Shown: piece by piece, positions 7,066 to 23,951 of the stretch
Layout of the letters: every line of letters starts with the position of its first letter
Numbering within the stretch: the stretch's first letter is position 1
Source: Thermoplasmatota archaeon
Lineage (GTDB): Archaea > Thermoplasmatota > E2 > DHVEG-1 > B18-G2
Assembly (NCBI GenBank): GCA_029259115.1
Contig: JAPDJO010000002.1
Location: 27,937 to 51,936 of the forward strand
Direction of reading: 5' to 3'
DNA length: 24,000 bases
Made by a program: the position numbers and the translations under genes
The notes under the pieces: model-generated
Databases searched by the model: none
What the model was told of the DNA's origin: nothing
The model's input: only the letters and a program-made list of their open reading frames with translations

Positions 7066-7105
7066 CCCTTTCTTTCCAATATTTTTTTATTCTTTTTATC
7101 TTTTT
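7066..7105 (+). terminator. Oligo-T cluster between arlB2 and arlB3; candidate (partial) archaeal intrinsic terminator
   Basis: T7 at 7082-7088, T5 at 7093-7097 and T5 at 7101-7105, preceded by the pyrimidine-rich CCCTTTCTTTCC. Archaeal RNA polymerase terminates at oligo-T tracts. Confidence 0.4.
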
Positions 7106-7139
7106 ACTAATTGGAAAACGGAGGTGGAAGAGGAACTAA

Positions 7140-7781
7140 ATGTTTAGACTAGATTCCAGAGCTAATTCGGGTGCGATAGGTATAGGTGCTTTGATTATTT
7201 TTATAGCTATGATACTCGTGGCAGGAATAGCTGCTAGTGTTATTATACAAACAATGAATAATCTTCAGAACAGGGCTATGAGCACAGGGAGGGAAACTAT
7301 AAGAGATATTTCTGCTGGAATAGAAGTACGACAAGTTTCGGGGTATGTTGTAAATTCAAAGGTAGATCAATTAGCTATCTTTGTATCTCCAATTGTTGCC
7401 TCAGAGGATATCGATCTCTCACACACTTTTATATCTCTCTCAGATACTAACAAGAAAATCATACTATCCTATGATAGTAATATGTTCAGCAGTTCAGTAA
7501 ATAATGGAGTTTTTCAGGCACTAAACTCTAGTAACTTAACATCCTCAACTTATGGAATTGTTGTCATAAGAGATCTAGATGGTTCTTGCACAGCAACATC
7601 ACCCGTGATTAATGAAAATGATATTGTCGCTCTCATTGTAAACACAACAAAGTGCTTTTCCGGTATATCTCCAAGAACAGAAGTATCTGGAAATGTTGTT
7701 CCAGAGTATGGAGTCAGTGGAGTGATAAGTTTTGTTACCCCGCCTGCACTAATAGACAAGATCGTTGATCTTCAACCTTAG
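7140..7781 (+). CDS. arlB3: Archaellin B3 (the divergent copy)
   Basis: 213 aa starting MFRLDSRANSG|[35 protein letters not shown] at 7120-7127 lies upstream. It is more AT-rich and more divergent than B1 and B2. Confidence 0.9.
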   Translation: MFRLDSRANSGAIGIGALIIFIAMILVAGIAASVIIQTMNNLQNRAMSTGRETIRDISAGIEVRQVSGYVVNSKVDQLAIFVSPIVASEDIDLSHTFISLSDTNKKIILSYDSNMFSSSVNNGVFQALNSSNLTSSTYGIVVIRDLDGSCTATSPVINENDIVALIVNTTKCFSGISPRTEVSGNVVPEYGVSGVISFVTPPALIDKIVDLQP

Positions 7782-9553
7782 ATGTAACTACCAAGGAATG
7801 TCGTCACAACAAAGCTTGTTATGCTGACTATCCAGACCATTGGAACAAAGTATAGAAGCGTTATTAATAGGTGACTCCCCCTCAGTTCTTTAATTGTTAA
7901 GGACAAAATCAAACAATGGATAACCAAGACGAGAAACACGACATAGAATATATTAGAAAATATCTGTGGAGGAACCGTAGTTAAGATCGCCCCTATATTT
8001 ATCTGCTGTAGATTTTTAAAGGGCTCTCCTGCCTCAAGCCATATCTCGTTGAGATGCTGCGCAATAACTAGAGATACGTATATAGAGAAAGCAATCCCAA
8101 AGGTTATTCCTAGGAAAAGGGAGACAGTAGTTTTTATTATTGATAACTTTTTCAATCTTAAATCCCTTATCTTTCTTATATTCTCTGTTATCATCCTAGC
8201 CACATCTCTTGGATTAGCGGCGGCATAGGTTGCTTCTCTGAACATCTCACTACCCCTTTGTATGTAATTGCTACACGTATCTACGCCAAACCATTCCCAT
8301 GCTGCATCATCATCTATTCTTGTGCTCAATCTTTTGTAAAGATTTCTTATGTGCGGAGTTAATATTCCATAATCCTTTTCGCTCAGATATTTCACGGATT
8401 CGTTTATCTTTCCTCCCTTCATTGCAGAGATAGAACCGAGTGCGGGTAAGAATCCAAGGAAGTTTCTCTCCCTTCTGAATATATTCTGTTCTTCGATGAA
8501 TGTTTTTATCCCAGGTATAATCAACGGAGTCAAAGCTATTGAAACAAGTATCTCATTTGGTATCAAGCTGAAAATTTGATAACCAGAAAATTTCAGATAA
8601 AATAGAAAAATGCCCAAGACTACAGATACCATGATAGATAAGAAAAATAGTCTGTAAAGATTCTTTTCAGTTTCACTTTTCTCTCCGGTCTGGGGCCATA
8701 TCTCATCAGCGGGCATCATGGATTTGAGCAAATAAAGAAGCAATCCTTCGGTTGCTATTAATGCAAACGCTGAACCATAAACAAAAGTGTTCATGTCTGC
8801 TGTACCCATTATCATTGGTAGAACCAATCCGAAAGACATTACGAAAACAATAGATATTAATAGACTAACATAGACCTCATTCAGTATAGTTAGATTTTCA
8901 TTTGCAGACTCATACATGGTCTTGTATTCTTCCATGACTGCGCCCTGCTCCTGCTCTATAAATTCTCTGTGACTAACTCCACTAACTAAACTTTGAGAAA
9001 ACCTATCTAGAAAATCCCTGAGCATTTTGCTAGGCGTTCTCTCTGATATGAATCTAAAGGCTCTAGCTAGGGGAACCTTCCACTGGGTAGAGAGGATACT
9101 TATCTTTCTTATCTCATCCCCTAGACTCTTGTAAACCTTTCTTTTTTCACCGATTGTATTGATGATATCCTTCAGGGATAGATCAGATATAGCAAGAACC
9201 CTTAGATGGGTTATAAAGAAATGCATCTTTCCGTTAATCTCGTTTTCTCTGTTCTTCCAGCTAATGTAGGGATATAGTATACTCAAGACAATGATTATAA
9301 GCCCGACACTTGGAAAGGCAATAGGATTTAGAGTTATTGAGAGGTATTTGTTTAGAGTAAACGGAAATATAATTAAAAATATCCCAAAGGCTAAGGAGGG
9401 TAGAAGATTCTTTTTGATAAATCCTTCAAAATCTTCTAAATTTCTATAGGCTATCCTTAGATCTTTGATAAAGCCACTCTTTTCTCCTCCTTCCTCTAAC
9501 TTTTTTTCCTTTTTGATTAGTAGTTTTCTCCTCTTATTTCCCTCCTCAACCAT
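7778..9553 (-). CDS. arlJ: Archaellum polytopic membrane platform protein ArlJ (FlaJ)
   Basis: 591 aa with many transmembrane helices separated by two cytoplasmic TadC/GspF-like domains. It is the last gene of the accessory operon, directly after arlI. Confidence 0.88.
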   Translation of the reverse strand: MVEEGNKRRKLLIKKEKKLEEGGEKSGFIKDLRIAYRNLEDFEGFIKKNLLPSLAFGIFLIIFPFTLNKYLSITLNPIAFPSVGLIIIVLSILYPYISWKNRENEINGKMHFFITHLRVLAISDLSLKDIINTIGEKRKVYKSLGDEIRKISILSTQWKVPLARAFRFISERTPSKMLRDFLDRFSQSLVSGVSHREFIEQEQGAVMEEYKTMYESANENLTILNEVYVSLLISIVFVMSFGLVLPMIMGTADMNTFVYGSAFALIATEGLLLYLLKSMMPADEIWPQTGEKSETEKNLYRLFFLSIMVSVVLGIFLFYLKFSGYQIFSLIPNEILVSIALTPLIIPGIKTFIEEQNIFRRERNFLGFLPALGSISAMKGGKINESVKYLSEKDYGILTPHIRNLYKRLSTRIDDDAAWEWFGVDTCSNYIQRGSEMFREATYAAANPRDVARMITENIRKIRDLRLKKLSIIKTTVSLFLGITFGIAFSIYVSLVIAQHLNEIWLEAGEPFKNLQQINIGAILTTVPPQIFSNIFYVVFLVLVIHCLILSLTIKELRGSHLLITLLYFVPMVWIVSITSFVVTTFLGSYI

Positions 9554-9562
9554 ATTTCAAAC

Positions 9563-11218
9563 CTATACATCTATTGGAAGACCATCTACACCTTCCCTGT
9601 AATATGTCCATATAACCTTGACAACTTCGTAATAATCTAAGATATCTTCCTCGACCATCCTTTCTAATATTTTTTGCCTAAGATCAAATTCTTCGTATAT
9701 TTCTGTTGGATCTGCATATCCTGCGTTCCTCGCTATCTTTTCTTCTAAAATGTAACTATTCTTGTAAGCCACAAATCTATGGACATCCTCTAAAGGATCC
9801 CATTCGAAAGCCTTTCTAGCCATAATTCCGTCTGCTTCTCTGTTATATCCCTCTATCTCATCTACAGATATGCATCTTCTAACTTTCTTTCCTTTCCTCT
9901 CAACGGCAGACTGTATGAGAACAACATCCAGATTATCCATAAATGTCTTCGGAACGTTTATGGGATCGCTCGTAAACCTCTGTATAACCTTCGTTACACT
10001 GCCAGCATGAAATGTAGTCATAACAGGATGTCCAGTCTGCATCGCTTGGAATACTATGTTGCCTTCTGCACCTCTAACTTCACCAGGTATTATATAGTCA
10101 GGTCTTGATCTTAAAGCAGCTACTAATAGATCAAATAAATCTACTCTACTTTCTTCTGGCCCTGTTGTTTTTGTTAGTAGCCTTTGCCACACCTCATGAG
10201 GAACTTTCAGCTCTGGGGTTGTCTCTGCTGTGTATATCTTTTTCTCTGGCGGTATAAAAGGAATAAAAGCATTCATGGTAGTGGTTTTTCCGCATGCTGT
10301 CTCTCCGCATAGAAAGATATTTCTACCATACTGTAGGCATATCCAGAAATAGGCAGCTATTCCTGCGGATATCGTCTTCCATTTAATAAGCTGGGTTACG
10401 CTTATTGGTACTTCCGTGAACTTTCTTATGCTCATGCTTGGTCCTTTTATGCTCACAGCTGAGCTATATATTATATTAGCCCTGCTACCATCTGGAAGGA
10501 TACCATCGGATATGGGTTTAGCTTCGCTGACAGGATTACCCATTTTTTCACTTAAAGCTCTCGAAAATTTTGGAGCTTCATCTTTGGGTATCAGAATATT
10601 TGTTTTGATCATCCCAAATACTTTGTGAATAAGATGAACATATTCTCCAGTTATGACGTGTATATCTTCTATATACGGATCCCTCATAAAAGGTTCAAGA
10701 GGCCCTCCTCCAACTAAGGTCTTGTATATATCATATTCTATCTTTTCTTTCTCCAGTGGTGTAAGATATACTTTGCTCTCGTTTTTTCCGAACAGCTTAA
10801 GAAGACTTTTCTGGGATTTCAGTTTTATATTGCTCTCTGTTGTTACAACAATCTCATCTAACAATTCTTTCAATATCTTTTTCAGATCCTCATCATTATC
10901 TGCTGCATTCTTCCTTACGACCTCCTTTAACATAAGCTTCATTATCTTTTCTTTCTTTTCTTTCTCCTCATCATTCAAAGAAGGCTCTATCGCATGATAC
11001 TCTATCTCTTCCATCCCAGGCAGTCTATAGATGTGAACAAAAACATTTCCTTTGGTTGGGTATATTATGTTTGGATACTTCTCTTCGCTTAGTTCCATTG
11101 GAGGAGCTTTAAGAAATTTTGGTGTATCCATTTTTTCCTTTATCTTGTCGAGATATTCCTTCAAGTGGGGATTCTGTTGGATTATCTTTTCGATTTCCTC
11201 CCTCTCCATTTCATACAT
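9563..11218 (-). CDS. arlI: Archaellum motor/assembly ATPase ArlI (FlaI), distal paralogue
   Basis: 551 aa of the type II/IV secretion ATPase family. Walker A is GETACGKTT and the Walker B region is RSRPDYIIPGEVRG, followed by FQAMQTGHPVMTTFHAGS. It is about 70 percent identical (by eye) to the neighbouring copy. Confidence 0.9.
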   Translation of the reverse strand: MYEMEREEIEKIIQQNPHLKEYLDKIKEKMDTPKFLKAPPMELSEEKYPNIIYPTKGNVFVHIYRLPGMEEIEYHAIEPSLNDEEKEKKEKIMKLMLKEVVRKNAADNDEDLKKILKELLDEIVVTTESNIKLKSQKSLLKLFGKNESKVYLTPLEKEKIEYDIYKTLVGGGPLEPFMRDPYIEDIHVITGEYVHLIHKVFGMIKTNILIPKDEAPKFSRALSEKMGNPVSEAKPISDGILPDGSRANIIYSSAVSIKGPSMSIRKFTEVPISVTQLIKWKTISAGIAAYFWICLQYGRNIFLCGETACGKTTTMNAFIPFIPPEKKIYTAETTPELKVPHEVWQRLLTKTTGPEESRVDLFDLLVAALRSRPDYIIPGEVRGAEGNIVFQAMQTGHPVMTTFHAGSVTKVIQRFTSDPINVPKTFMDNLDVVLIQSAVERKGKKVRRCISVDEIEGYNREADGIMARKAFEWDPLEDVHRFVAYKNSYILEEKIARNAGYADPTEIYEEFDLRQKILERMVEEDILDYYEVVKVIWTYYREGVDGLPIDV

Positions 11219-11233
11219 GTTTCTTTCACTTTC

Positions 11234-12880
11234 TCATATCGAGAAAGGTAGACCATCTATCCCCTCTCTATAATAACTCCAGACTATCTTCACAACCTCA
11301 TAGTAATCCATTATCCCCTCTTCCACCATTCTTTCAAGTATTTTCTTCCTTAGATCAAACTCTTCGTAGATCTGCATCCTGTCTTCGAAGCCCGCATTCT
11401 TTGCGATTTTTTCCTCTAGGATATAGCTATTTCTGTTAGCCCTAAATAGATGAGTATCATCTACGGGATTCCACTCAAATGCTCTTCTTGACATGATCGC
11501 ATCTACTTCCTTGTTATATCCCTCTATCTCTTCTACAGATAATACTCTTCTTATCCTTTTCCCTTTCCTGTCTACCGCCATCTGTATCAGTATAACATCC
11601 AGATTATCCATGAAAGGCTTCGGTATATTTATTGGATGTCCGGTAAACCTCTGTATAACCTTCGTTACACTGCCAGCGTGAAATGTTGTTATAACAGGAT
11701 GTCCAGTCTGCATCGCTTGGAAGACAACCCTTGCTTCTATACCTCTCACCTCACCAGGTATTATATAGTCAGGTCTCGATCTGAGGGCTGCATCCAGAAG
11801 ATCTATAAGCTCAACATGACTCTCCTTTGGGCCTGTTGACCTAGTCAAAAGCTGTTGCCAGACTGGATGAGGAACATGAACTTCTGGTGTGTTTTCTGCT
11901 GTATAGATCTTCTTCTCTGGAGGTATAAATGGAATTATTGCATTGGTAGTGGTAGTCTTTCCAGAAGCTGTTTCGCCGCATACAAAAACACTCCTACCAT
12001 ATTGTAAGCACAGCCACAAGTATGCAGCTATTCCTGCACTCATCGTTCCCCATTTAATAAGTTGGGTTACACTTATTGGTGTCTCGCTGAACTTTCTTAT
12101 GGTCATTGTTGGACCTTTTAGGCTTACATCTTTGCTGTGAATTATATTAACTCTACTGCCATCTGGTAATGTACCATCTGCTATGGGTTGTCCTTCGCTG
12201 ACCGGACTACCTATCTTTTCACTAAACTCTTGGGAAAAGGTAGGTGCCCACTCCTCATCTATGAATATATTTGTCTTTACCATCTCAAACACTTTATGTA
12301 CAAGATGAACATGTTGTCCAGTTATGACATGAACATCTTCTATATATGGATCTCTCATAAAAGGTTCAAGAGGCCCTCCCCCTATGATACTCTTAACTAT
12401 ATCATATTCTATCTTTTCTCTTTCAATAGGTGTAAGAACGATCTTTTCTCCTTTGAACTTGCCAAATAATCCTTTCTTTTCCTCTATATCTCCTTTCTTT
12501 TCAGAAACTACAACTATCTTATCCATCATCTTTTTTATGAGTTCTCTTATTTCCTCATTCGTCCTCATTTCTTTCTTTTTTATCGCTTCTTCATAAAGCC
12601 TTTCCATAATCATATCTCTTTTCTTCTTCTCCTCATCATTCAAAGAAGGTTCTATCGCATGATACTCTATCTCTTCCATCCCAGGTAGTCTATAGATATG
12701 GATAAAGACCGTGCCTTTGGTTGGATATATCAAGTTAGGGTACTTTTCATCTCTCAGTTCTCTAGGAACCTGACTGTAGAATCTTGGAAAATCCATCTTG
12801 TCCTTTATGCTTTCTAGATATTCTTTTAAATGAGGATTCTGCTGAATCAATTTCTTAACCTCTTCTTCGTTCATTATCAT
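11234..12880 (-). CDS. arlI: Archaellum motor/assembly ATPase ArlI (FlaI), proximal paralogue
   Basis: 548 aa. Walker A is GETASGKTT and the Walker B region is RSRPDYIIPGEVRG, followed by FQAMQTGHPVITTFHAGS. It directly follows arlH. Confidence 0.9.
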   Translation of the reverse strand: MIMNEEEVKKLIQQNPHLKEYLESIKDKMDFPRFYSQVPRELRDEKYPNLIYPTKGTVFIHIYRLPGMEEIEYHAIEPSLNDEEKKKRDMIMERLYEEAIKKKEMRTNEEIRELIKKMMDKIVVVSEKKGDIEEKKGLFGKFKGEKIVLTPIEREKIEYDIVKSIIGGGPLEPFMRDPYIEDVHVITGQHVHLVHKVFEMVKTNIFIDEEWAPTFSQEFSEKIGSPVSEGQPIADGTLPDGSRVNIIHSKDVSLKGPTMTIRKFSETPISVTQLIKWGTMSAGIAAYLWLCLQYGRSVFVCGETASGKTTTTNAIIPFIPPEKKIYTAENTPEVHVPHPVWQQLLTRSTGPKESHVELIDLLDAALRSRPDYIIPGEVRGIEARVVFQAMQTGHPVITTFHAGSVTKVIQRFTGHPINIPKPFMDNLDVILIQMAVDRKGKRIRRVLSVEEIEGYNKEVDAIMSRRAFEWNPVDDTHLFRANRNSYILEEKIAKNAGFEDRMQIYEEFDLRKKILERMVEEGIMDYYEVVKIVWSYYREGIDGLPFSI

Positions 12881-12889
12881 TTTATCACC

Positions 12890-13603
12890 TCAGAATGCAA
12901 CCGCTGAAGTTTCTATTGTTAAACCTATACCTGGTCTTACTGAGAAGGTTGTTACTGGCTCATACCTATGCCTTGCACCATTGAACTTTTTGAGATAGAT
13001 ATTATGCACAATTCCCAAACCTGGCTTAGTTTCTCTAGTTACTAAGAAGTGAAGATCTGATATCATCCTAAACTCGTGATTTATCTCTTCATCCCACTCC
13101 TTCGGATTCATAGTAATAAATATGATCTTTCCAGATCCCGTTAATCTGTTAAAGAAGCTGATCAACTCTACAAGATTCTCTTTGTTTAAACTCTCCTTGA
13201 GCAGGGTAGATAGTGAATCTATGAAAATTATCTCTGGCTCAAAGAGTTTTTTAGCTGTTATAAGAGATTTAAAAAAGGTATTTCTTGGTAAAGTTTCAGC
13301 TAGCATAACCTCCGTTGAAATGAAAAACAGCTTGCCGGACATCAGATATTCTTTCATATCATATCCAACAGAAGCGACCTGGCGAAGAAAACCCTTAACA
13401 GTATATTGCGTTGATACATAGGAGCAAGTATGTCCATTTTTAAGAAAACTGTAACAGAATCTCTGGCAAAATATGCTTTTTCCTGTGCCTTCTTCACCCT
13501 CTATCAAAACTAAAGAACCATCTGGTATAGCCTGACCAAATCTCTGCTCAAATCCATCCTTCTCTCCTCCTCTTTCGAGTACTATGGATTTATAGGTCGG
13601 CAT
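12890..13603 (-). CDS. arlH: Archaellum KaiC/RecA-like ATP-binding protein ArlH (FlaH)
   Basis: 237 aa with Walker A GEEGTGKS and the Walker B-like IIFIDSLS. It occupies the canonical position between arlG and arlI. Confidence 0.88.
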   Translation of the reverse strand: MPTYKSIVLERGGEKDGFEQRFGQAIPDGSLVLIEGEEGTGKSIFCQRFCYSFLKNGHTCSYVSTQYTVKGFLRQVASVGYDMKEYLMSGKLFFISTEVMLAETLPRNTFFKSLITAKKLFEPEIIFIDSLSTLLKESLNKENLVELISFFNRLTGSGKIIFITMNPKEWDEEINHEFRMISDLHFLVTRETKPGLGIVHNIYLKKFNGARHRYEPVTTFSVRPGIGLTIETSAVAF

Positions 13604-13612
13604 CCCATCACC

Positions 13613-14065
13613 TCATATCTCAAAGTTAAACTCATCATAGACCCCTCTTGGACCAACAAGCTTTAGTTTATGGTTTCCAGAAGTTATTTCCGTGGATGAT
13701 ATGTATAGAGTTACCACATCTGACTGTAAAACATAGTTAGAAGAGAAGTAATAGTTGCTTTTTCCAATGATATTTCCATCTACGAAGACCTGAAATGTAT
13801 CATTTGTTGTTTCTATCTTCTTATCACCTATATTTTTAACATAGAAAAGATAATATCCAGCTGATATCGGTATATTTTCTGGATCATTTATGATCTCAAA
13901 GTCTGTGTCTAGCTTATCTTTGAGCCTATCACATTTCTCTGTCAGACTTTTACTTATGTCCATGGTTACAGCGGTGAATATTCCAGATACTGCTCCAGCT
14001 ACGATTACAGCTGCGATGAAGAAAACTATGTGAGTTCCCGTCAAACTGAAACCCATCCTAATCAC
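13613..14065 (-). CDS. arlG: Archaellum stator/periplasmic protein ArlG (FlaG)
   Basis: 150 aa with an N-terminal hydrophobic archaellin-like helix (GTHIVFFIAAVIVAGAVSGIF) followed by a beta-rich domain. The F-versus-G assignment rests on gene order. Confidence 0.75.
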   Translation of the reverse strand: MIRMGFSLTGTHIVFFIAAVIVAGAVSGIFTAVTMDISKSLTEKCDRLKDKLDTDFEIINDPENIPISAGYYLFYVKNIGDKKIETTNDTFQVFVDGNIIGKSNYYFSSNYVLQSDVVTLYISSTEITSGNHKLKLVGPRGVYDEFNFEI

Positions 14066-14488
14066 CTATGCACTATACGTCTCATAATCGCTAATCCCAT
14101 TTCCAGTGACAACTTTTACTCTTACTAAACCAGTATAGGTAAGATTTGTTATGTTGAGAATAACTGTATTTTCAGGATAGAGATAGGGAAGGTTATAATC
14201 GAAGTCCTCGATAGTTCCATTTACTATAACCGTGAAATCCTTAACCTCCAAGCTTACACTACCTGTATTTTCCACTTTTATAGAAATATTATAAGGTTTG
14301 CCCGGGCTTTTAGTTACATTTGTTATCTCTATATCCGTATTTGCTCTCTCTACGATTCTATCTTCCAATTTTTTGTAAGATCTTTCCAACTCAGATGCAG
14401 CCGGAAGAACACTACTCGAGAATATATCTATACATACAACTAGGCATACACCTAGTATTGCGAATGCCGCTGATGTTGAGAATCCCAT
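14066..14488 (-). CDS. arlF: Archaellum stator/S-layer-binding protein ArlF (FlaF)
   Basis: 140 aa with the MGFSTSAAFAILGVCLVV N-terminus followed by a beta-sandwich-like region. Its stop abuts the arlG start. Confidence 0.75.
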   Translation of the reverse strand: MGFSTSAAFAILGVCLVVCIDIFSSSVLPAASELERSYKKLEDRIVERANTDIEITNVTKSPGKPYNISIKVENTGSVSLEVKDFTVIVNGTIEDFDYNLPYLYPENTVILNITNLTYTGLVRVKVVTGNGISDYETYSA

Positions 14489-14517
14489 CCGTACCCCCCA
14501 AAGTTTGAGGCTTTTAT

Positions 14518-15285
14518 CTATTGAAAGGAAAGATTCTCAAGATTCTTGCTAAGTTTACTCAAATCTCTCTCTATTTTTCCTATGAAGTGCTCATCTATCT
14601 CGTTACCTTTCAACTTCTGTATGTAAAGGAATGATTGAATGTGATCCTTTGCTACAAGATTTCTTCTCTCGCTGGTTTCTTCTGTTATCCCTTCACAGTA
14701 CTCAAGTAACTTTACCTTTACATCATCTGTTATCCATCCAATATCGACGTAGTAATCTAAAACCTTGGAAATGTTATCTTTTCCTACTCTATCCACGAGG
14801 TATTGTAGCCACTTCATTACTATTACAACACCTTCTGGATCATTTGGTAGGGAATCCAAAGTAGATGCTCTGAACTCTATCTTTTCTTCTCCAGGAATCC
14901 TTATATCTTCTGGCTTGCTTTCCTTGATTTTTACATCCACATTTTTCATCCACTCGTCCTGCATCCTTTCTAGTCTCTCCACTCTTTGATGAAGATTCTC
15001 TAAAGTCTGAAGGAATTTGTTCATCTCTTCAGCAGGCTGAAATGATGTTGTGCTTGGAGGAGTTGATGGCTGAGATGTAGATGAAGTTTGTGTGGACTTC
15101 TCTCTCAGATATGAATTTATCTTATCAACTAATTTATAAAGTTGATCCTTGGTTAAAGTTAAATTTTTCTCTTTCACCTTCTCTTTTATCTTTTCAGCTA
15201 TTGATGGCGTTATTCTACCCTGAGCAACGAGGGCAGAGAGTTCTGCGCCTAGCTCAAATTTTTCAACCAAATCCTTATCACTCAT
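14518..15285 (-). CDS. arlD: Archaellum accessory protein ArlD/E (FlaD/E family)
   Basis: 255 aa. The C-terminal LPNDPEGVVIVMKWLQYLVDRVGKDNISKVLDYYVDIGWITDDVKVKLLEY matches the FlaD/E domain signature (W-L-x-x-L ... YY-x-x-I-G-W-I). A Ser/Thr/Pro linker and an N-terminal helical region precede it. Confidence 0.85.
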   Translation of the reverse strand: MSDKDLVEKFELGAELSALVAQGRITPSIAEKIKEKVKEKNLTLTKDQLYKLVDKINSYLREKSTQTSSTSQPSTPPSTTSFQPAEEMNKFLQTLENLHQRVERLERMQDEWMKNVDVKIKESKPEDIRIPGEEKIEFRASTLDSLPNDPEGVVIVMKWLQYLVDRVGKDNISKVLDYYVDIGWITDDVKVKLLEYCEGITEETSERRNLVAKDHIQSFLYIQKLKGNEIDEHFIGKIERDLSKLSKNLENLSFQ

Positions 15286-16024
15286 TTTTTACCTCCTCCA
15301 AAAACCTATCAATCACATCATCTATACTATCTTCCAACATTAACGTTGATATTGCTTTTTCTACAACATCATCGAGTTTCATAGAACTACCCGATAATGT
15401 AGGAGTAACCTCTGTAGCCATCCCTGTAGTCTCAGTAGATCTATCTGTCGGTATTTTACCAACAAGTATTTCCAAATCTTCTAGCCTGCTTTTTATCTTC
15501 TCAAACTCTTCTGTGAATTTCTCTAGAGCTTCTAGCCTCTGCTTTGTTACTTTTGATAAACCAACAAATGGATTCATTTGTTCAGAGACTATTTCGTATA
15601 GGCTTACCAAATCATCTAAATCCTTGTTGAGATTCTCTATTCGATTCTCGAGATCCTTTATCATGTCCCTATTTTTTGATATTTCGACTTCCAACTTAGA
15701 CAATTGTTTATCTAAGTTTGGTAAGATGTTGGTAGCTGGTACTTGTGGTTGCGATTGTTTATCTTCCTCCTTGACTGGGGCAGGAGTTATCTCCTTTTCC
15801 TTGGTTTCTAAGGTTACATCTTGTTGCTCTTCCTGCTCCTTCCTGCTCTCGGTTTCTTCTGAAGAACTTTCCTTCTTCTCGAATTTCAACATTTTCCTAG
15901 TTCCGTCTCCAAGATCAACCTCTTTTACCATAACTTCTTCCTTGTTTTCTTTTATCTCCCCCTCCTCTTTCCCTTTCCTAAACTTTAACTTTATACTAAC
16001 CCCTCCACCTCCGTTTTTAAACAA
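15278..16024 (-). CDS. arlC: Archaellum accessory protein ArlC (FlaC family)
   Basis: 248 aa. A coiled coil ends in DDLVSLYEIVSEQMNPFVGL, the FlaC signature (YE-x-V-x-x-x-x-NPF). The start is uncertain: the track start is TTG at 16024, and the first ATG is at 15931 (Met32). It overlaps arlD/E by 8 nt. Confidence 0.8.
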   Translation of the reverse strand: MFKNGGGGVSIKLKFRKGKEEGEIKENKEEVMVKEVDLGDGTRKMLKFEKKESSSEETESRKEQEEQQDVTLETKEKEITPAPVKEEDKQSQPQVPATNILPNLDKQLSKLEVEISKNRDMIKDLENRIENLNKDLDDLVSLYEIVSEQMNPFVGLSKVTKQRLEALEKFTEEFEKIKSRLEDLEILVGKIPTDRSTETTGMATEVTPTLSGSSMKLDDVVEKAISTLMLEDSIDDVIDRFLEEVKNE

Positions 16025-16030
16025 TTAGGT

Positions 16031-16049
16031 AATATCTATATCAGATATT
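16031..16049. promoter_or_regulatory. Inverted repeat AATATCT-N5-AGATATT abutting the TATA-like element of the divergent arlC / PAS-protein promoter region
   Basis: The 7-bp arms at 16031-16037 and 16043-16049 are perfect reverse complements. The adjacent TTTATATTTTTA (16048-16059) is TATA-like on both strands. Confidence 0.3.
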
Positions 16050-16147
16050 TATATTTTTACCTCATCTCTCTGTTTGCAGGAAAAATCTTTTAAAATCTAA
16101 TAGCCTAACTGAATTGGAGGAGGAGTTTAACACGGAGGTTAAAATAG

Positions 16148-17983
16148 ATGTCACAAGATAGTAGATCCAATAATTATATGGATTTTTTTATACTTGGTAT
16201 AGATAGCAATGCTAGACTTATTGCATTCAACAGAAAGTGCGAAGAGTTAACTGGTTACAGGAGGGATGAGATTCTCCATAGAAAGATATGGGGCACCATT
16301 TTTCCTAAAGAATATAGAAGGAATTGGAATAGTATATTTTTGGATAGGGTAGAAAGAATCGAGTTACCTCTCCTAGATAAAAATAGAAAGAGGCTAGATC
16401 TAGTCTGGAGTCCTATGGAAGTAGGTATCAAAGATAAAGAAATTTGGCTCATTGGAGTAGAGAGATCGGAAGAAAATAAACTCTGGGATTTTTTAGAAAT
16501 AGAAAAAGTTGGAAACCCTGTTGATAAGAAAAATAATAACGAGAATCTGAAGAAAAAGATCGATGAATTGTTAAAAGTCAAGAATTCAATAGAAATTGCA
16601 ACAAATCTTATAGAAAGACAATGGAAGAAGATAAGTGATTATGCAAAACAACTAAGCAATATGGAAAAGATTTTGGAGAAAGAAAAAAGAAAACTTGAGA
16701 AAGAGAAGAAAGAGATGGAGAAACATAGGGAAAGAGTGGAAAACCTAATGGAGAGAAAACTTTTCTATTTTGAGAGAAAACTCAGGGAAAAAACAAATAA
16801 AATTTCCAAACTAAGTGAGAGAGGATCTGTTTTAAAGAATTTGAATGAAAGATTGAGAGAGATAGAGTATATGAGCAGGGAACTAGAAGTAATGTTGAAT
16901 GGAGTGATGGAAAAAGAGGCAGAGATCAAAGATCTAGAAAAGAGAATTAACCTAGAGAAGGAAAACTTGGAGAAAGACAAAAGAGAAATCAGAATGAAGC
17001 TGAAAACCATTGAGACCAAGGAAAAGGAACTGGTAAGAAAAGAGAACGAGCTGAGAAAAAGAATCAGAGAGGTAGAGAATAAGGAGAGAGATATACAAAA
17101 TATGAAAATCAAACTGGAAAATGAAAGGAGAATATTGGAAGAAAGGATGAAAGATATTGAAAAGAGACTGGAATTAGAGAAAAATATATTCATGGAGCAA
17201 CTAGAGAGTAAATATAAAGCTGTATTTGAAAGAAAAATAAATGATCTCAAAAGAAAACTCGAAGATTATAAAACAAGAGAAAAAGAACTTAAATTAGATA
17301 TAACTCTCCTTAAAAAAAGAGAGAAGGAATTGGAGAAGGAGATAGAGAAATACAGATCTAAGGAAAAGGAGCTACTTGAGCTAGAGGAGAAGATAAATAA
17401 AGAAAGAGAAGAAATCGCTAAACTCGAAGAAGAAATCAATGCAAGGAGTAAACTGCTAGAAGAGATGGAAAACAGGGAAAGAGAAATCATATACAGGGAA
17501 AACGAACTCAGGAAGAAGGAGAAACAACTCAGGGAGAAAGAGAGAGAGCTGATAGATAGAGAGAGAGAACTCCGAGACATGCTTATAAGATCATCATTAC
17601 AAGAAACGACATTGCCTATAGTGAAAGAAACCAAAAAATTGGAACAAGAGACCGAAGAATCAAAAGATCTCTCTGAGATGGAGATCCCTGCCGCACTTGT
17701 AAGGAAAGGAATGATCCTCAAAGCAAATGAACAGTTCCTTTCTCTCACAGGACTTAGTGAAAGAGATATTACCAACAAAAGCTTCTTTTCGTTGATAGCT
17801 CCAGAAGAACTCCCAAACCTGCAGAGATATTACTTATCTAGATTAAAAGGAGCAGATATAGATTCAATCGATACTATTATAGTGAACAGCAAAAATGAAA
17901 AAATACCAGTGAAAATAAAATTAAATCAAATAAAATTAAGAGACGGTATCTTTGATTTAGCGCTTATAGAGTCGTTAGACTAG
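16148..17983 (+). CDS. PAS / long coiled-coil / PAS protein with no recognisable output domain
   Basis: 611 aa. The N-terminal ~110 aa are PAS-like (FILGIDSNARLIAFNRKCEELTGYRRDEILHRKIW). Residues ~125-490 are an uninterrupted E/K/R/L-rich heptad-type region. The C-terminal ~100 aa form a second PAS-like fold (ALVRKGMILKANEQFLSLTGLSERDITNKSFFSLIAPEE). GGAGGT lies 8 nt upstream of the ATG. Confidence 0.8.
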   Translation: MSQDSRSNNYMDFFILGIDSNARLIAFNRKCEELTGYRRDEILHRKIWGTIFPKEYRRNWNSIFLDRVERIELPLLDKNRKRLDLVWSPMEVGIKDKEIWLIGVERSEENKLWDFLEIEKVGNPVDKKNNNENLKKKIDELLKVKNSIEIATNLIERQWKKISDYAKQLSNMEKILEKEKRKLEKEKKEMEKHRERVENLMERKLFYFERKLREKTNKISKLSERGSVLKNLNERLREIEYMSRELEVMLNGVMEKEAEIKDLEKRINLEKENLEKDKREIRMKLKTIETKEKELVRKENELRKRIREVENKERDIQNMKIKLENERRILEERMKDIEKRLELEKNIFMEQLESKYKAVFERKINDLKRKLEDYKTREKELKLDITLLKKREKELEKEIEKYRSKEKELLELEEKINKEREEIAKLEEEINARSKLLEEMENREREIIYRENELRKKEKQLREKERELIDRERELRDMLIRSSLQETTLPIVKETKKLEQETEESKDLSEMEIPAALVRKGMILKANEQFLSLTGLSERDITNKSFFSLIAPEELPNLQRYYLSRLKGADIDSIDTIIVNSKNEKIPVKIKLNQIKLRDGIFDLALIESLD

Positions 17984-18832
17984 CTCTACTATTCTGTTTG
18001 TGAACACACATGGTGCAGCAGCATCAAATGTACCAGGCGCTCCTACCTCCGGAACGAAGCTGCCAGATATTGATGCTCTTGGTGGTAATCCGGTTGAGTT
18101 GAATGCAGCAGAGAGATTGACTATTATTATTGCTTTGTCTCCGACATTCATACCATAGTTCCTGTATATTGAACCATCTGCATCGTGTAAGGCTATTATT
18201 CCAAAGGTTGTTGCATTCAGAGATACGCTCAGCGTATGGAAAACTCCATCTGGACTAACCTTGGATGCAACATATCCGTCTTGGTCAGAGTATGTTAATG
18301 TAATTAGCCTATCATATTTCAGATATAATATAGTATTCTTGAGATCTATATCTTGAGAACCAGATCTTGGTCTCACAGTCAGAGCCAGATGGGTTATGTA
18401 TGTCTTATTCTCGTTTGTATAACCTACTACATCTATAACAGCTAAGCCACTCGAAATCTCTCTAGTTGTCTGCAAACCAACCTTGTTCGCTCTTTGTTGC
18501 AGAGTTTCTCCAGTTTTTATAAGAACGCTTGCTGCGACCGCAGATACCAGAATCATAGCTATAAACACTATCAGTGTACCTATACCAACGAAAGCCATTT
18601 GATCTCCTTTAAAACTCTTTTTGATTTTCCTCATTGATCTAGGCTTTATTGCCACTATTGACTTCAGATTCAAACAACCTAGCCCTTGATCAGAATCTAC
18701 GATCACAAAACCTGCATCATAATCTATTTCTTCCAAAATCCCAGAGATGACACTAGCTCTTTCCTTACCCGGCTCCTTTAATACTATCTTACAGTATCTT
18801 CCCACCAGCCTATCCATATACCTCTTCTCCAC
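17975..18832 (-). CDS. arlB4: Fourth archaellin with an in-frame N-terminal extension (Sm-like small beta-barrel pattern)
   Basis: 285-aa ORF. Residues 80-285 are a typical archaellin (FVGIGTLIVFIAMILVSAVAASVLIKTGETLQQRANKVG ... PEVGAPGTF). Residues 67-79, MRKIKKSFKGDQM, resemble a normal class III leader. Residues 1-66 are extra. There are three candidate starts. GTG 18832 has AAGGAGGTG upstream (GGAGG at 18842-18846, 9-nt spacer). ATG 18634 has no obvious SD. ATG 18598 has AAGGAG 5-6 nt upstream. Confidence 0.85.
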   Translation of the reverse strand: MEKRYMDRLVGRYCKIVLKEPGKERASVISGILEEIDYDAGFVIVDSDQGLGCLNLKSIVAIKPRSMRKIKKSFKGDQMAFVGIGTLIVFIAMILVSAVAASVLIKTGETLQQRANKVGLQTTREISSGLAVIDVVGYTNENKTYITHLALTVRPRSGSQDIDLKNTILYLKYDRLITLTYSDQDGYVASKVSPDGVFHTLSVSLNATTFGIIALHDADGSIYRNYGMNVGDKAIIIVNLSAAFNSTGLPPRASISGSFVPEVGAPGTFDAAAPCVFTNRIVELV

Positions 18833-18855
18833 TTCTCACCACCTCCTTTACGTTC

Positions 18856-18888
18856 CATTTCCCATGCCACTTGATTGCATGGGAAATG
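18856..18888 (-). promoter_or_regulatory. Perfect 12-bp-stem / 9-nt-loop inverted repeat in the predicted 5' UTR of arlB4
   Basis: CATTTCCCATGC (18856-18867) and GCATGGGAAATG (18877-18888) are exact reverse complements. The structure ends 10 nt upstream of the SD of arlB4 and about 28 nt downstream of a minus-strand TATA-like TTTAAATATT (18916-18925). Confidence 0.45.
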
Positions 18889-18915
18889 TTGTCATGTATT
18901 ATGTCTTCAAGTAAC

Positions 18916-18925
18916 AATATTTAAA
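18916..18925 (-). promoter_or_regulatory. Candidate TATA box for arlB4
   Basis: The minus strand reads TTTAAATATT. Its position predicts a transcript starting near 18890, which would place the hairpin at the extreme 5' end of the mRNA. Confidence 0.3.
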
Positions 18926-18936
18926 CCTTACTTGGA

Positions 18937-18957
18937 AAATTATCAAATTGATAATTT
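18937..18957. promoter_or_regulatory. Perfect 21-bp palindrome AAATTATCAA-A-TTGATAATTT in the divergent arlB4 / archaellin-like gene intergenic region; candidate dimeric-regulator operator
   Basis: The 10-bp arms are exact reverse complements around a single central A. The site lies just upstream of the putative arlB4 TATA and about 55 bp upstream of the TATA of the + strand gene. Confidence 0.4.
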
Positions 18958-19010
18958 GTCACATGTTCTCATGCTTCATAATATCTCGACAACATTTGTA
19001 CAATAACTCG

Positions 19011-19018
19011 TTTATAAG
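19011..19018 (+). promoter_or_regulatory. Candidate TATA box for the 19038 gene (leaderless transcript)
   Basis: TTTATAAG starts 27 nt upstream of the ATG at 19038. No SD is present, which fits a leaderless mRNA. Confidence 0.4.
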
Positions 19019-19037
19019 CAAAGTTCCAAAGTTTTAA

Positions 19038-19622
19038 ATGATGAGAGAAGCAGGGAGTACAGGAATTGCATCGGCTATCCTTCTGATAGCGATACTACTC
19101 ATGGGCAGTAGTGCAATCTATACAACAATAAGTCAGGATAGCATATCTTCAGGTGATTTCGAAAATAAGGTAAATGAAATACTAGATGACATAACCTCAT
19201 ATTTCCTAGTAAAAGAAGGCTATGCCAAAACAGACGGGAACGAAATCAAAATACTCTTACTGGTTAAACCTATCTTTGATGATCCCATCTCAATATCAAA
19301 TCTCACTCTTCAGGTAATTGATGATGATTCTATTCATGTGTTGAAACTTCACGACATATATGAAACAGGGAAAGATTTGTTTGATAGCGACCTCTGGAGC
19401 GAGATTAATCAGAGCTTTTGTATAATCCCTGTTGTTGATAGAGATGAATCCATTTCCAAAGAAAAGACGGTGAATGGAGATTTGTTTTATGTGGCCTTGT
19501 GCCTAAGAGGGATAGAAATAGGCGAAGATATTGAGATTTCTATTCTATCGGAGACAGGGTCAATTTCTGTATTAACCATCGATATACCCTTCTCCACGTC
19601 TGATGTTTTCAAGATATACTAA
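19038..19622 (+). CDS. Protein with an archaellin/type IV pilin-like N-terminus and a novel C-terminal domain
   Basis: 194 aa. MMREAGSTGIASAILLIAILLMGSSAIYTTISQDS aligns in pattern with the archaellin N-termini of this window (G-x-x-G-I-x-x-x-I-x-x-I-A-x-x-L). The remainder is acidic and beta-rich with no motif I recognise. Confidence 0.6.
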   Translation: MMREAGSTGIASAILLIAILLMGSSAIYTTISQDSISSGDFENKVNEILDDITSYFLVKEGYAKTDGNEIKILLLVKPIFDDPISISNLTLQVIDDDSIHVLKLHDIYETGKDLFDSDLWSEINQSFCIIPVVDRDESISKEKTVNGDLFYVALCLRGIEIGEDIEISILSETGSISVLTIDIPFSTSDVFKIY

Positions 19623-21204: not shown

Positions 21205-21969
21205 TTAATTAGAAGACTTGCTGAATTTGATAGCCTCTTCCATTTCGATTTCTCCTTTGAGAACTTTAAGTGCTAATTCTCTGGATATAGTTATTCTACC
21301 ACCGCTTAGGATCCTACTTTTTCTCTGCACTTCCTTTATTTCTCCATCGGTAAATCTTCTGTCTCCATTTCCTCTTACCGATCTACCTCTTGATTTTGCT
21401 ATCCTTATAGCAGCTACCTCGTTTCTTTCCATTCTTGAGTATCCAGTTCTCTGACTCGTTTTTGTTTCATCTACTATTTCAATTCTGATATCAACATCTC
21501 TTAAACCGTCTATGATTCTATCCCTGTAAATTCTGGCATCATGGCCTATCCTTACTATCCTCTCCTTGTCTGAAAAGTCACTCAGAATTTTTCTTACTAT
21601 TCCTAAAGCCTCATCTGTGGATGATGCACACCAGGTTCTTAGAACAGTTTCACCAGAGAGGAGGGCTATACCAGGGTACTCCCCTGGATCTATTCCTATC
21701 ACGATCTCGTCACTATTTCCATGTAAAATTTGCATAGCCCTATCCAATGCAGAATCTATGTCTCTAAAACAGTCAGCATATACGACCTTCCTTCCGCCTA
21801 TATCTTTACCCTCAGCTGAAGATGTTATAATGACACCAACCTTATGCGGTATTCTATCTATGGAGTGTAAATGAATATAATCTATGCCTCTTTCATTCAT
21901 CTTATTCATTATGTCATGTGCTAGCGAGAAATCCTTTGTGTATATCCCCACTATCTTCATCTTTCCCAC
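21205..21969 (-). CDS. Conserved hypothetical protein with an RNase H-fold (RuvC/YqgF-like) core
   Basis: 254 aa. IVIGIDPGEYPGIALL (the first acidic-residue strand typical of RuvC/YqgF folds) is followed by IEIVDETKTS (a second acidic motif), with a basic C-terminal tail. It overlaps the upstream cca ORF by 13 nt. The functional call is tentative. Confidence 0.45.
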   Translation of the reverse strand: MGKMKIVGIYTKDFSLAHDIMNKMNERGIDYIHLHSIDRIPHKVGVIITSSAEGKDIGGRKVVYADCFRDIDSALDRAMQILHGNSDEIVIGIDPGEYPGIALLSGETVLRTWCASSTDEALGIVRKILSDFSDKERIVRIGHDARIYRDRIIDGLRDVDIRIEIVDETKTSQRTGYSRMERNEVAAIRIAKSRGRSVRGNGDRRFTDGEIKEVQRKSRILSGGRITISRELALKVLKGEIEMEEAIKFSKSSN

Positions 21970-23951
21970 GGCATCTTGTTTTCTATATACTCTGTCCAGA
22001 ATAATTTCAAATCATCCCTTAATAAATCTTTCGATGTAAGGATGCTAAATTTACCATCTTTTACAACTTCCTCTATATCTTTTCCGAGGCTTAATTTTCT
22101 CAGATTTTTAGCGAGAAAATCATCCAATCTATTATATTTCCTTTTTACCTCTACATACCACCTTCCATCTTTGAGATAAGGTCCTTTAACTACTTCTTTG
22201 CTGTTTCTCCATTTTTCCAAGAAAGCTTCAACATGCCTTTTTTCTTTTTCTGGAGGTCCCCTATGTATGTATGTTTCTGGTAGTTCTATCTCTTTTGGCT
22301 TGAGAAGAATGTATATCTTGTCTTCAGTGACCACAAACCTTCCATCCTCTATCTCGAAATCATTTTCTTCACACGATTTAACTATCCTTCTCAAAGTCTT
22401 CTTTGCCTGTGGGTACAGATTATCTGGAATTATATCCGGCTTTTCTATTTCTACCCCGATAAAACCATCTAGATGTTTTTTTATTTCCTCATCAGGTAGA
22501 GGTTTTATGGTTTGAGGGAAAAAGAATCTCTCGCTCGGCTTTTCCAGATATTCTTTGCATGCTCTTTTGAATATCTCTAGTTTCTCCTCGGATACGGCTG
22601 ATGCAACATTTCTGTTTGGATCTACCGGATCTATAAAAACTAAAGGATCATTAAAAGCTGGCGAAGGAACTTCCTTGAGTTTTATCACCTCCCCCTTTTT
22701 CCAGTCTTTTGCATTCCTAAGAACATTTTCAAAGGATCCATATTTTAGTATCAGGAGTTCACATAGATAACCCGAAAAACCTTCTACCTCTGCCTCTGCA
22801 CCATAACAACCTATACCTTTTAGAAATCTTTTTAACAATCTTACATCCTTTCTTTTTCTGAAAGGTAGATTTTCTCTTATGAAATCTGTATGAAAGGGAG
22901 TTCTATCAACCGCAGATATCTTTTCAGATGCTTTTTTCACTCTATAGCAAGGAACAATCTCGACATCATATCCCTTGTACTTTCCCCTTATATAGGGATG
23001 CTCCGCATATCTTTCTTCATGCTTTTCCAGTATTTTTCTGCCTATCAAAAGTCCCTTTCTTTCCATTTCCTTTCTCGGTGTGTTTGGAGGGAACAGTAAA
23101 AATATGTCTATATCTACGGAATCTCTAAGATAAGTATCTTTAGCAACTGATCCAACCAATTTTGGTACAGCTTTTATGTTCTCTTTCTTGATTTCCTTTT
23201 CTATTTTGTCTAAGAGCTCTAAAACTATCCTGTTCAGTTTCCTTCTCTCAGCAAAACTCGGTGTAATCTTTCTCAAAACCTCTTTTTCTATGCTGTTCTC
23301 GTAATTCACTACTCCGCAAGCTATCAAAAATATAGATATCCCTCCAATAACATCTGTTATCCAGTGTATGGATAGATATAGCACTGAGAATATCACACCT
23401 AGAGCAGATATCAAAGTGATGTAGAAATATCTTCTATCTCTCATAAAACTCGATGACTTTACTAGGAGAAGTGCCATTGCAACATGTAAGGATGGAAAAC
23501 AGTTATTTTTCGTTGTTACTGCATAAAAGAACTTCTCAATCCCTGGTATGATCTTACCCAAATGGAAATCTATGCCTAAATATGTGTACACATTTGTTAC
23601 AGGTAGAAATAGATAAAAGGGCAGGGCGCAGAGATAGATTATAACCAAACCATATGATAAACTCCTCATGGCTTTTTCCTCGTTGCCAATCAAGAATAGG
23701 AGTGGAGAAAACCATAGGGTAAATGGGTAGAGGATCATATAGAAGAATACTGAGATAATGGAGATCAAGTTAGAAGTATTTTGAGATAGATATTCGAAAA
23801 AACCTTTCTCATAAGAATAGAAGACCGGAGCAAAATCTTTCCCTATTAGATTGGTGGTAAATCTATCTATGAAGTTCACTTCAAACAAGTGGAAAAGTAC
23901 AACCAGAATTAATATAATCAGATGTAATCTGAGATTGAAAAATCCTTCCAT
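21957..23951 (-). CDS. cca: Single ORF fusing an N-terminal membrane PAP2-type phosphatase/phosphotransferase domain to the archaeal class I CCA-adding tRNA nucleotidyltransferase
   Basis: 664 aa. Residues 1-213 have about 6 TM helices and the PAP2 motifs FPSLHVAMA and SIHWITDVIGG. Residues ~220-664 carry GSVAKDTYLRDSVDIDIFLLF, AEHPYIRG, VDRTPFHTDF and GFSGYLCELL, which are diagnostic of archaeal CCA-adding enzymes. No stop separates the two parts. The only candidate internal start is GTG 23309-23307 (Val215). Confidence 0.85.
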   Translation of the reverse strand: MEGFFNLRLHLIILILVVLFHLFEVNFIDRFTTNLIGKDFAPVFYSYEKGFFEYLSQNTSNLISIISVFFYMILYPFTLWFSPLLFLIGNEEKAMRSLSYGLVIIYLCALPFYLFLPVTNVYTYLGIDFHLGKIIPGIEKFFYAVTTKNNCFPSLHVAMALLLVKSSSFMRDRRYFYITLISALGVIFSVLYLSIHWITDVIGGISIFLIACGVVNYENSIEKEVLRKITPSFAERRKLNRIVLELLDKIEKEIKKENIKAVPKLVGSVAKDTYLRDSVDIDIFLLFPPNTPRKEMERKGLLIGRKILEKHEERYAEHPYIRGKYKGYDVEIVPCYRVKKASEKISAVDRTPFHTDFIRENLPFRKRKDVRLLKRFLKGIGCYGAEAEVEGFSGYLCELLILKYGSFENVLRNAKDWKKGEVIKLKEVPSPAFNDPLVFIDPVDPNRNVASAVSEEKLEIFKRACKEYLEKPSERFFFPQTIKPLPDEEIKKHLDGFIGVEIEKPDIIPDNLYPQAKKTLRRIVKSCEENDFEIEDGRFVVTEDKIYILLKPKEIELPETYIHRGPPEKEKRHVEAFLEKWRNSKEVVKGPYLKDGRWYVEVKRKYNRLDDFLAKNLRKLSLGKDIEEVVKDGKFSILTSKDLLRDDLKLFWTEYIENKMPWER

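Follow-up and report, generated by a model that had tools for sequence, protein, structure and literature searches.

An archaellin of Thermoplasmatota with a predicted Sm-like domain ahead of its class III cleavage motif

We analysed a stretch of 24,000 nucleotides (nt) from a Thermoplasmatota archaeon (GenBank assembly GCA_029259115.1, contig JAPDJO010000002.1, positions 27,937 to 51,936 of the forward strand), here called the window, whose own numbering is used throughout. The window holds a full archaellum cluster, and the gene in the classical arlB slot at the operon head encodes an archaellin joined in frame to a small N-terminal barrel domain. Its 285 amino acids (aa) fall into three parts: barrel (residues 1-64), linker (65-83), and archaellin (84-285). 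The same fusion was found in 66 genes of 54 loci, the window counted, all of them in metagenome-assembled genomes (MAGs) of Thermoplasmatota. We consider it probable that this is a genuine and ancient three-part pre-archaellin, whose barrel would remain in the cytoplasm, be freed by the prepilin peptidase in one copy per subunit, and then act in trans. The gene and its signals are the following.

17975-18832, minus strand: complete fused pre-archaellin gene, stop codon included, from the list of open reading frames (ORFs); 285 aa from GTG 18832 or 280 aa from ATG 18817.
18641-18832, minus strand: predicted Sm/Hfq-like β-barrel domain, residues 1-64, from AlphaFold2, Foldseek, and invariant residues.
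18584-18640, minus strand: linker, residues 65-83 (RSMRKIKKSFKGDQMAFVG), basic and disordered, with the class III cleavage motif A-F-V-G/I-G-T-L at its end (here and below the slash marks the cut).
17978-18583, minus strand: predicted mature archaellin, residues 84-285, with helix 84-126 and then a β-sandwich head, from Pfam and the model.
18842-18846, minus strand: Shine-Dalgarno-like GGAGG, 9 nt 5′ of GTG 18832, read from the DNA.
18856-18888, minus strand: conserved 5′-leader hairpin (CATTTCCCATGC-aatcaagtg-GCATGGGAAATG) between promoter and Shine-Dalgarno sequence; 12-bp stem; covariance model R1, 35.2 bits.
18918-18925, minus strand: TATA-box-like TTTAAATA, about 90 nt 5′ of the start, after which comes the conserved block GTTACTTGAAGACA..TACATG.

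An earlier description of this region, made by a model from the letters and an ORF list (hereafter the sequence-only reading), had proposed a single ORF from GTG 18832 with GGAGG 9 nt upstream and an in-frame TGA just before it. All of this was read in the DNA, the TGA lying at 18838-18836 and one codon (GAA) separating it from the GTG. Read directly from the DNA, the in-frame ATGs within the ORF are 18817 (M6), 18634 (M67), and 18598 (M79). Gene callers have chosen M6 for identical or near-identical proteins, and the 280-aa protein P0196, 100% identical, was found in independent assemblies (labels in P denote proteins and labels in L denote loci of this analysis, L101 being the locus of CP070798.1). 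Considering that residues 1-5 (MEKKY or MERKY) are kept in relatives and that some of these have no Met at position 6, the start at GTG 18832 seems likelier than M6. The GGAGG is the same in L006 and L010, and L011 keeps part of it (AAGGTGG). The open frame 5′ of the archaellin is not due to chance, since a profile search with the N-terminal 66 residues found 324 homologues at E ≤ 1e-3 and, in the barrel region, nonsynonymous divergence (dN) between the window and its relatives was 0.015-0.08 while synonymous divergence (dS) ranged from 0.34 to saturated.

The structure of the extension was predicted by AlphaFold2 with 76 homologues, and the model supports an Sm-like fold for residues 1-64 (predicted local distance difference test, pLDDT, of the barrel 94.1; predicted template modelling score 0.77). 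The predicted secondary structure comprises a helix (3-9) and the strands 13-18, 27-37, 42-47, 50-55, and 59-64, which is the Sm topology of an N-terminal helix followed by a strongly bent five-stranded antiparallel sheet. When the barrel was compared with the PDB by Foldseek, the matches were mostly Hfq chains, with template modelling scores (TM) of 0.67-0.78 and root mean square deviations of 1.7-2.5 Å; they came from Listeria, Methanocaldococcus jannaschii, Caulobacter, Bacillus subtilis, Thermotoga, Aquifex, and the entries 1kq1/1kq2. GerQ, RimP (7afi_X), and Tudor barrels were also matched. The Sm-like barrel of the sequence-only reading was thus borne out at the level of the fold. Of the first 64 positions, 19 do not vary across 64 fused homologues, including G11, C14, K15, E20-P21-G22, G31, D37, G41-F42, S47, G50, G52, and A61-I62-K63-P64, and the barrel is more conserved than the archaellin head domain. 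Its tryptic peptides include IVLKEPGK and ASVISGILEEIDYDAGFVIVDSDQGLGCLNLK.

The remainder of the protein is an archaellin by its profile. Pfam Arch_flagellin (PF01917) covers residues 80-269 with 111.5 bits against a cut-off of 29.5, leaving some 79-83 residues ahead of it, in agreement with the extension of 66-79 residues described before; the basic leader-like stretch that had been pointed out ahead of the core was also found, as MRKIKKSFKGDQMAFVG/IGTLIVFIAM. The predicted peptidase cut falls after Gly83, between nt 18584 and 18583. Across this site (AFVG/IGTLIVFIAMILVSAVAASVLI) the protein has the form of a class III signal, that is, Gly or Ala at −1 and then a hydrophobic helix of about 20 residues. 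In the full-length AlphaFold2 model residues 65-83 are disordered, with pLDDT below 50 at 69-78, and the long helix begins exactly at I84. G83 and T86 are invariant in the 64 fused homologues and I84 and G85 nearly so, while position −2 is V, I, or M in 66 of the 66 fused genes. The resulting motif, x-[VIM]-G/I-G-T-L-I-V-F-I-A, corresponds to the AIG/IG of the three canonical archaellins (ArlB1-3) of the same window. It is in length that the protein departs from a short leader of 3-12 aa, as 83 residues precede the cut and 64 of these lie in the folded barrel. Over the 66 fused genes the linker measures 15-38 aa (median 20) and is rich in K, R, and H, and the whole pre-sequence measures 77-102 aa (median 84).

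The distribution of the fusion was followed with several searches. A first survey with residues 1-78 gave 12 proteins, in which close relatives were fused but cut at contig ends and distant relatives were free-standing, with 69-73 aa. An exhaustive HMMER search gave 66 cluster representatives at E ≤ 1e-3, and the full 285-aa query gave 689 proteins at E ≤ 1e-20; among the 120 matches listed of these 689, query coverage was 94-100%, length 269-325 aa, and identity 51-100%. The full-length matches come from NCBI, ENA, JGI, and Logan assemblies under the names 'flagellin', 'FlaB', or 'hypothetical', and fused proteins from independent assemblies are either identical or agree to 97-99%. When species-representative genomes were scanned, 80 loci were found, all in Thermoplasmatota MAGs, including SG8-52-3 and SM1-50 and four complete chromosomes. 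The complete MAG chromosomes that carry the fusion are CP070712.1, CP070798.1, CP070724.1, and a 1,070,046-bp contig encoding P0230. The question raised by the sequence-only reading, whether orthologues have the same fusion or a separate small ORF, was answered by the 54 loci, where the fusion is the same and in frame. Twelve loci (L020, L021, L030, L032, L037, L038, L047, L054, L058, L063, L065, and L069) have two fused genes in tandem. Both copies come with an Sm-like domain and a leader hairpin, the domain having been duplicated along with the archaellin.

Translation as one chain, which had been raised only as a condition, is likewise favoured by these genes. The linker is free of in-frame ATG, GTG, and TTG in 44 of the 66 and free of ATG in 47, and L010 and L011, which are close relatives, have zero start codons in their DNA between the domain and the cleavage site. 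Considering that 44 of 66 linkers offer no start codon, most members can translate the archaellin only from a start 5′ of the barrel. The domain is under constraint within the fused genes (dN 0.037 with dS saturated, dN/dS far under 1), and its identity among them drops to about 59%. In a rough neighbour-joining tree of the domain the fused copies form one clade nested among the free-standing ones, which is consistent with a single fusion event. The fusion therefore appears to be old and to have arisen once, and the suggestion that it was recent does not hold.

The free-standing relatives give a view of the domain by itself. They are mostly 65-75 aa long, with no Pfam domain, as seen in the 324 profile matches; some share MAGs with fused genes (e.g., JAGLML01, JAHWGK01, and CAYFVP01), and their gene contexts are unrelated to motility. 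A second view is given by loci that have lost the archaellum. The close relative represented by L006, L008, and L009 (about 83% DNA identity) is without window positions 4854-18382, that is, the 13.5-kb archaellum cluster and most of the archaellin, and the deletion joins 18383, inside the archaellin, to 4853, 15 nt inside the EarA gene. The archaellin stump left behind is decayed by four indels, including a 9-nt insertion with a stop and an 11-nt deletion, and the barrel ORF has zero indels, with 10 synonymous versus 2 conservative changes (dN/dS 0.043). L008 is also without most of the divergent pilin-like gene, of which the first 38 or so codons remain. In L055 and L060, truncated members nested in the fused clade, a C-terminal remnant of arlJ lies directly 3′ of the intact small ORF. 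At least three independent deletions of archaellum genes have spared the Sm-like ORF, which argues that the domain works in trans. Since a close relative is without the whole cluster, the archaellum is a presence/absence polymorphism in the lineage of the window; archaellum genes on putative plasmids have been reported in Thermoprofundales (PMC9585477).

Two further observations were made on the free-standing genes. In L068, L078, L083, and L097 an EarA homologue is immediately convergent with the free-standing Sm-like gene. A general link of the free-standing paralogues with EarA was rejected, the arrangement being present in 5 of 29 loci plus L097, with L048 and L060 of those probably remnants of cluster deletion; EarA beside these genes may be a relic of such deletions or a functional link. 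Apart from this, a free-standing subgroup (L070, L073, L076, L081, L086, L094-L096, and L098-L100) has a different, longer, and strongly conserved stem-loop in its 5′ leader, CATGCTTGGAGAG..GATGGGGATATTTGGTATC..CTCTCCTAGGCATG, from about 75 to 12 nt 5′ of the gene and with −24 to −33 kcal/mol; two loci scanned (L094 and L098) gave no Rfam match for it. Small ORFs 5′ of the free-standing members L094 and L097 were checked as possible tandem paralogues and proved not to be such.

Taken as a pre-archaellin of three parts, the protein would behave as follows. Translation would begin 5′ of the barrel, at GTG 18832 or possibly at ATG 18817, and the hydrophobic helix of the archaellin would enter the membrane in the usual prepilin orientation (N-terminus inside, C-terminus outside), with barrel and linker staying in the cytoplasm. 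A peptidase of the ArlK/PibD class, which ArlB1-3 with the same cleavage motif need themselves, would then cut after Gly83 and yield a mature archaellin of 202 aa and one Sm-like protein of 83 aa per subunit. Considering that class III leaders stay cytoplasmic and are removed at the inner membrane face by the prepilin peptidase (PMC10191384), we infer that the barrel stays on the cytoplasmic side throughout and is set free in a 1:1 ratio to the mature subunit. The freed domain would act in trans, as its free-standing paralogues presumably do. With low confidence, and because the domain persists alone, we favour a regulatory role in trans over that of a purely cis chaperone: the domain may be a post-transcriptional or assembly-coupled regulator whose level follows archaellin output, possibly by way of its own leader hairpin.

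The leader of nearly all fused genes has one layout, running from a TATA-like box, which probably serves as promoter, through the block GTxACTTGxGAACA...TACATG and the hairpin to the Shine-Dalgarno sequence. The hairpin consensus consists of A-CCATGC, a loop of 5-9 nt, and GCATGG-GAAAcGAAA, and it is found upstream of fused arlB in L012-L080 and L101. Hairpins of at least 7 bp are present in 73% of 72 leaders versus 25% of shuffled sequences. A covariance model built from 37 leaders and run over 621 kb on both strands gave 51 matches at E < 0.05, all of them 10-75 nt 5′ of fused-type genes, namely fused arlB and the truncated L055 and L060, some of them outside the seed set. Rfam has no family for this hairpin. 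It could be an RNA target of the Sm-like domain, and feedback at the RNA level through it is speculative. The fullest form of this idea makes the peptidase a release switch: the freed Sm/Hfq-like protein would bind RNA, at the arlB leader hairpin and possibly in other transcripts, tuning archaellin translation or mRNA stability to export or assembly capacity, and the role of the free-standing paralogues would be that of small RNA chaperones of a general kind in these Thermoplasmatota. RNA binding and feedback are speculative, and we regard this form as rather improbable.

Several points weigh against a released, trans-acting domain. The canonical ArlB1-3 are also present in the window, so that the fused protein may be a minor subunit. 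No prepilin peptidase gene was found in the 24-kb window, to which the search was confined, and published work on leader length in ArlK/PibD covers minimal lengths only (PMC10117864). In the genome of the window, by contrast with most others, ATGs stand in frame at −17 and −5 relative to the cleavage site, and an ordinary short-leader product could be made in it as well. The Foldseek E-values are modest (0.008-0.1), the likeness to Sm/Hfq being structural only; the Pfam models LSM (PF01423) and Hfq (PF17209) gave zero matches at E ≤ 1 among the 76 members, and binding of RNA by the barrel is unsupported. With regard to the hairpin, RNAalifold on 37 leaders gave six pairs, four with compensatory double changes, a count that is biased because the leaders were selected with the hairpin finder, and a palindromic DNA operator could look alike.

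Taking into account that Foldseek matches Hfq while the sequence searches of Pfam and the PDB find none, we speak of an Sm-like fold; membership of the Sm/LSm family is not established, and assignment to LSM or Hfq by Pfam, with neither model matching any member, was set aside as unsupported. The profile search of PDB sequences gave zero Sm/Hfq chains at E ≤ 10, and its top match was an ACT-like domain (E 0.054). With regard to the Sm/LSm sequence pattern claimed by the sequence-only reading, an Sm1-like pattern can be seen by inspection (K-I-V-L-K...G31-I-L-E-E-I-D37, with a longer β1-β2 loop), and the R-G of Sm2 and the Y-K-H-A-I of Hfq are absent, as is any LSM/Hfq profile match, and β5 has the invariant A-I-K-P instead. 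By comparison with Sm, LSm, and Hfq proteins, among them the Hfq of Methanocaldococcus jannaschii (PDB 4x9c/5dy9), the barrel shares the predicted helix and five bent strands and a size of about 65 aa, with an Sm1-like G-x-L-x-x-I-D stretch visible by inspection, and differs in having no significant sequence match; the model is of a monomer only. The nearest sequence family is the C-terminal barrel of RimP (PF17384), the sole Pfam model to match repeatedly (60 of the 76 members, best E 7e-5), and RimP is also in the Foldseek list. All members are below the gathering threshold of this model, the window protein with E 0.021 and 15.5 bits against 26.3, and the family has neither the N-terminal domain of RimP nor a ribosome-biogenesis context.

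The persistence of the barrel bears directly on a different role, that of a pro-domain acting only in cis and discarded after cleavage, which would keep the helix soluble, delay access of the peptidase, or dock to ArlI/ArlH/ArlJ or the signal recognition particle. The duplication of the domain together with the archaellin in the 12 tandem loci, its conservation above that of the archaellin head, and the position of the fused gene as the first archaellin of the operon all agree with such a role. Against it are the hundreds of free-standing barrel proteins in unrelated contexts, the barrel kept intact under purifying selection after loss of the archaellin in at least three lineages, and ArlB1-3 of the same genome, which do without a barrel. 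We consider a purely cis role possible, though rather doubtful.

Another reading is that the precursor is not cut at all. The protein would then be anchored in the membrane, with the Sm-like domain in the cytoplasm, a single transmembrane helix, and the archaellin fold outside, as a basal or last subunit joining the filament to the motor or as a protein of the ArlF/ArlG kind. ArlF and ArlG are regarded as retaining an N-terminal anchor, and those of the window also match Arch_flagellin; the leader of 83 residues is far beyond the tested substrate range of ArlK/PibD, and canonical archaellins are on hand to build the filament. However, the motif around Gly83 is conserved and the same as in ArlB1-3, and ArlF and ArlG are without G/IGTLIVFIAM. 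The NCBIfam flagellin model PRK08541 gives 194.9 bits, just short of its cut-off of 210, against 29.9 bits for the ArlG equivalog model (cut-off 110), which covers the N-terminal helix alone. Moreover, the gene occupies the slot of the major archaellin and is often the sole archaellin 5′ of arlC. An uncleaved precursor is thus unlikely.

Less still can be said for the window genome making its archaellin mainly from the internal ATG 18634 or 18598, with a leader of 17 or 5 residues and the barrel confined to a minor read-through product. The two ATGs are in frame, AAGGAG lies a few nt 5′ of ATG 18598, and MRKIKKSFKGDQMAFVG resembles a normal leader. These ATGs, which the sequence-only reading had also offered as starts, do exist in the window but are specific to its lineage and not needed: the close relatives L010 and L011 are without them, and since internal initiation is impossible in 44 of the 66 members, the upstream start must be the one that serves the family as a whole. 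Promoter, leader hairpin, and Shine-Dalgarno sequence are all 5′ of the barrel, and with no stop codon there is no separate barrel protein, yet the barrel is under strong purifying selection. We hold internal initiation as the main route to be very unlikely. The last rival makes the fusion artificial, the product of a sequencing or assembly error that erased a stop separating arlB from a small gene, as the sequence-only reading had allowed. It is already refuted by the identical and near-identical proteins of independent assemblies, the four complete MAG chromosomes, and a frame that is kept despite linkers of 15-38 aa, and has practically no chance of being right even though assemblies often break or are chimeric at the archaellin N-terminus (P0002, P0003, P0018, P0023, and P0024).

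On this last point, it was observed that metagenome assemblies often break, or join unrelated sequence, at the conserved N-terminal helix of the archaellin (P0018, P0023, and P0024, and the contig ends of L010 and L011), so some database proteins that start with the barrel domain are chimeras.

The three-part pre-archaellin that we prefer can be set against systems already described. To our knowledge no Sm-like protein is fused to a secreted filament subunit. With canonical archaellins (ArlB/FlaB, PF01917) the fused proteins share the archaellin domain, the hydrophobic helix, Gly at −1, the slot 5′ of arlC-arlJ, and the predicted helix plus β-sandwich; they differ in a pre-sequence of 77-102 residues with a folded domain. 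The leaders described for archaellins and pilins have 3-12 residues, and the longest found, in ArlB of Oxyplasma meridianum, has 26 and is described as 'unusually long' (PMC12448462, PMC10117864). As for type IVb and monoderm type IV pilins, the prepilin leader is likewise cytoplasmic and removed by a prepilin peptidase, and it has been termed 'much longer' or 'very long' (PMC10191384). Such leaders differ from the present pre-sequence in not being folded domains with free-standing homologues. They are unstructured peptides of roughly 15-30 residues. In bacteria, the export of FlgM and the Hag-FliW-CsrA switch tie a cytoplasmic factor to subunit export and feed back on filament genes, in the case of CsrA through flagellin-leader RNA. 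The proteins are unrelated, and by analogy the putative regulator here would be covalently attached and released by a signal peptidase.

Although the fused proteins are already in public databases, a description of their architecture was not found in the literature searched, whether as an archaellin with an Sm-like domain, as long N-terminal extensions, or in the archaella of Thermoprofundales. A survey of archaeal Lsm proteins reports no Sm-archaellin fusion, and a survey from 2026, which covers type IV filament systems and class III substrates in archaea, makes no mention of N-terminal domains before the signal. Subunits of type IV filaments have been described with a short unstructured cytoplasmic leader, and here a clade of Thermoplasmatota has long kept a folded domain in that place. 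If the protein is cleaved, the substrate range of ArlK/PibD-type peptidases would be much wider, and a signal peptidase could release a cytoplasmic protein in stoichiometric amounts, a new coupling of surface-filament production to the cell interior. If the feedback were also true, archaea would have a counterpart of the bacterial FlgM and FliW-CsrA circuits in which the coupling is covalent. In any case the finding defines an uncharacterised family of small Sm-like proteins, with more than 300 members and no Pfam entry, and a conserved leader element. The fused proteins are labelled 'flagellin' or 'hypothetical' by gene callers and annotators, and they would probably escape tools that look for class III signals close to the N-terminus alone.

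The rest of the archaellum cluster in the window, in which there is also a lipoprotein-like ORF, is made up as follows.

7778-16024, minus strand: remainder of the archaellum operon (arlC, arlD/E, arlF, arlG, arlH, two arlI, and arlJ), from Pfam and the ORF list.
5764-7781, plus strand: the three canonical archaellins ArlB1-3, with leaders of 12-14 aa ending AIG/IG, convergent with arlJ.
4838-5176, plus strand: EarA-like archaellum transcription regulator at the far end of the cluster, Pfam EarA (PF07381), 89.1 bits against a cut-off of 22.

L017, L053, and CP070798.1 have the layout of the window, that is, the divergent pilin-like gene, fused arlB, arlC, arlD/E, arlF, arlG, arlH, arlI, and arlJ, and then a convergent canonical archaellin. 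The 67-aa gene at 18846-19049 (minus strand) of L101 was considered as an unfused Sm-like gene and rejected; it is a C-terminal fragment of an ArlB1-type archaellin, a pseudogene remnant beside the second archaellin of CP070798.1. The window has two tandem full-length paralogues of arlI, a T2SSE-type ATPase (9563-11218 and 11234-12880, both minus strand), and CP070798.1 has one.

Divergent from the fused arlB and 5′ of it, at 19038-19622 (plus strand), is a weakly archaellin-like gene of 194 aa, whose N-terminus, MMREAGSTG/IASAILLIAILL, is of class III type. A divergent archaellin-like gene of 190-210 aa is in the same place in L010, L013, L017, L019, L026, L027, L038, L047, L052, L080, and L101. 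Between the fused arlB and arlC, at 16148-17983 (plus strand), lies a gene for a 611-aa protein with a PAS domain, a long coiled coil, and a second PAS domain, which shares 9 nt with the 3′ end of arlB; no homologue of it was detected by tblastn in the other loci. Finally, the 664-aa protein encoded at 21957-23951 (minus strand) has an unusual fusion of its own, in which an N-terminal PAP2 membrane phosphatase-like domain (residues 61-212) is joined to a complete archaeal CCA-adding enzyme.

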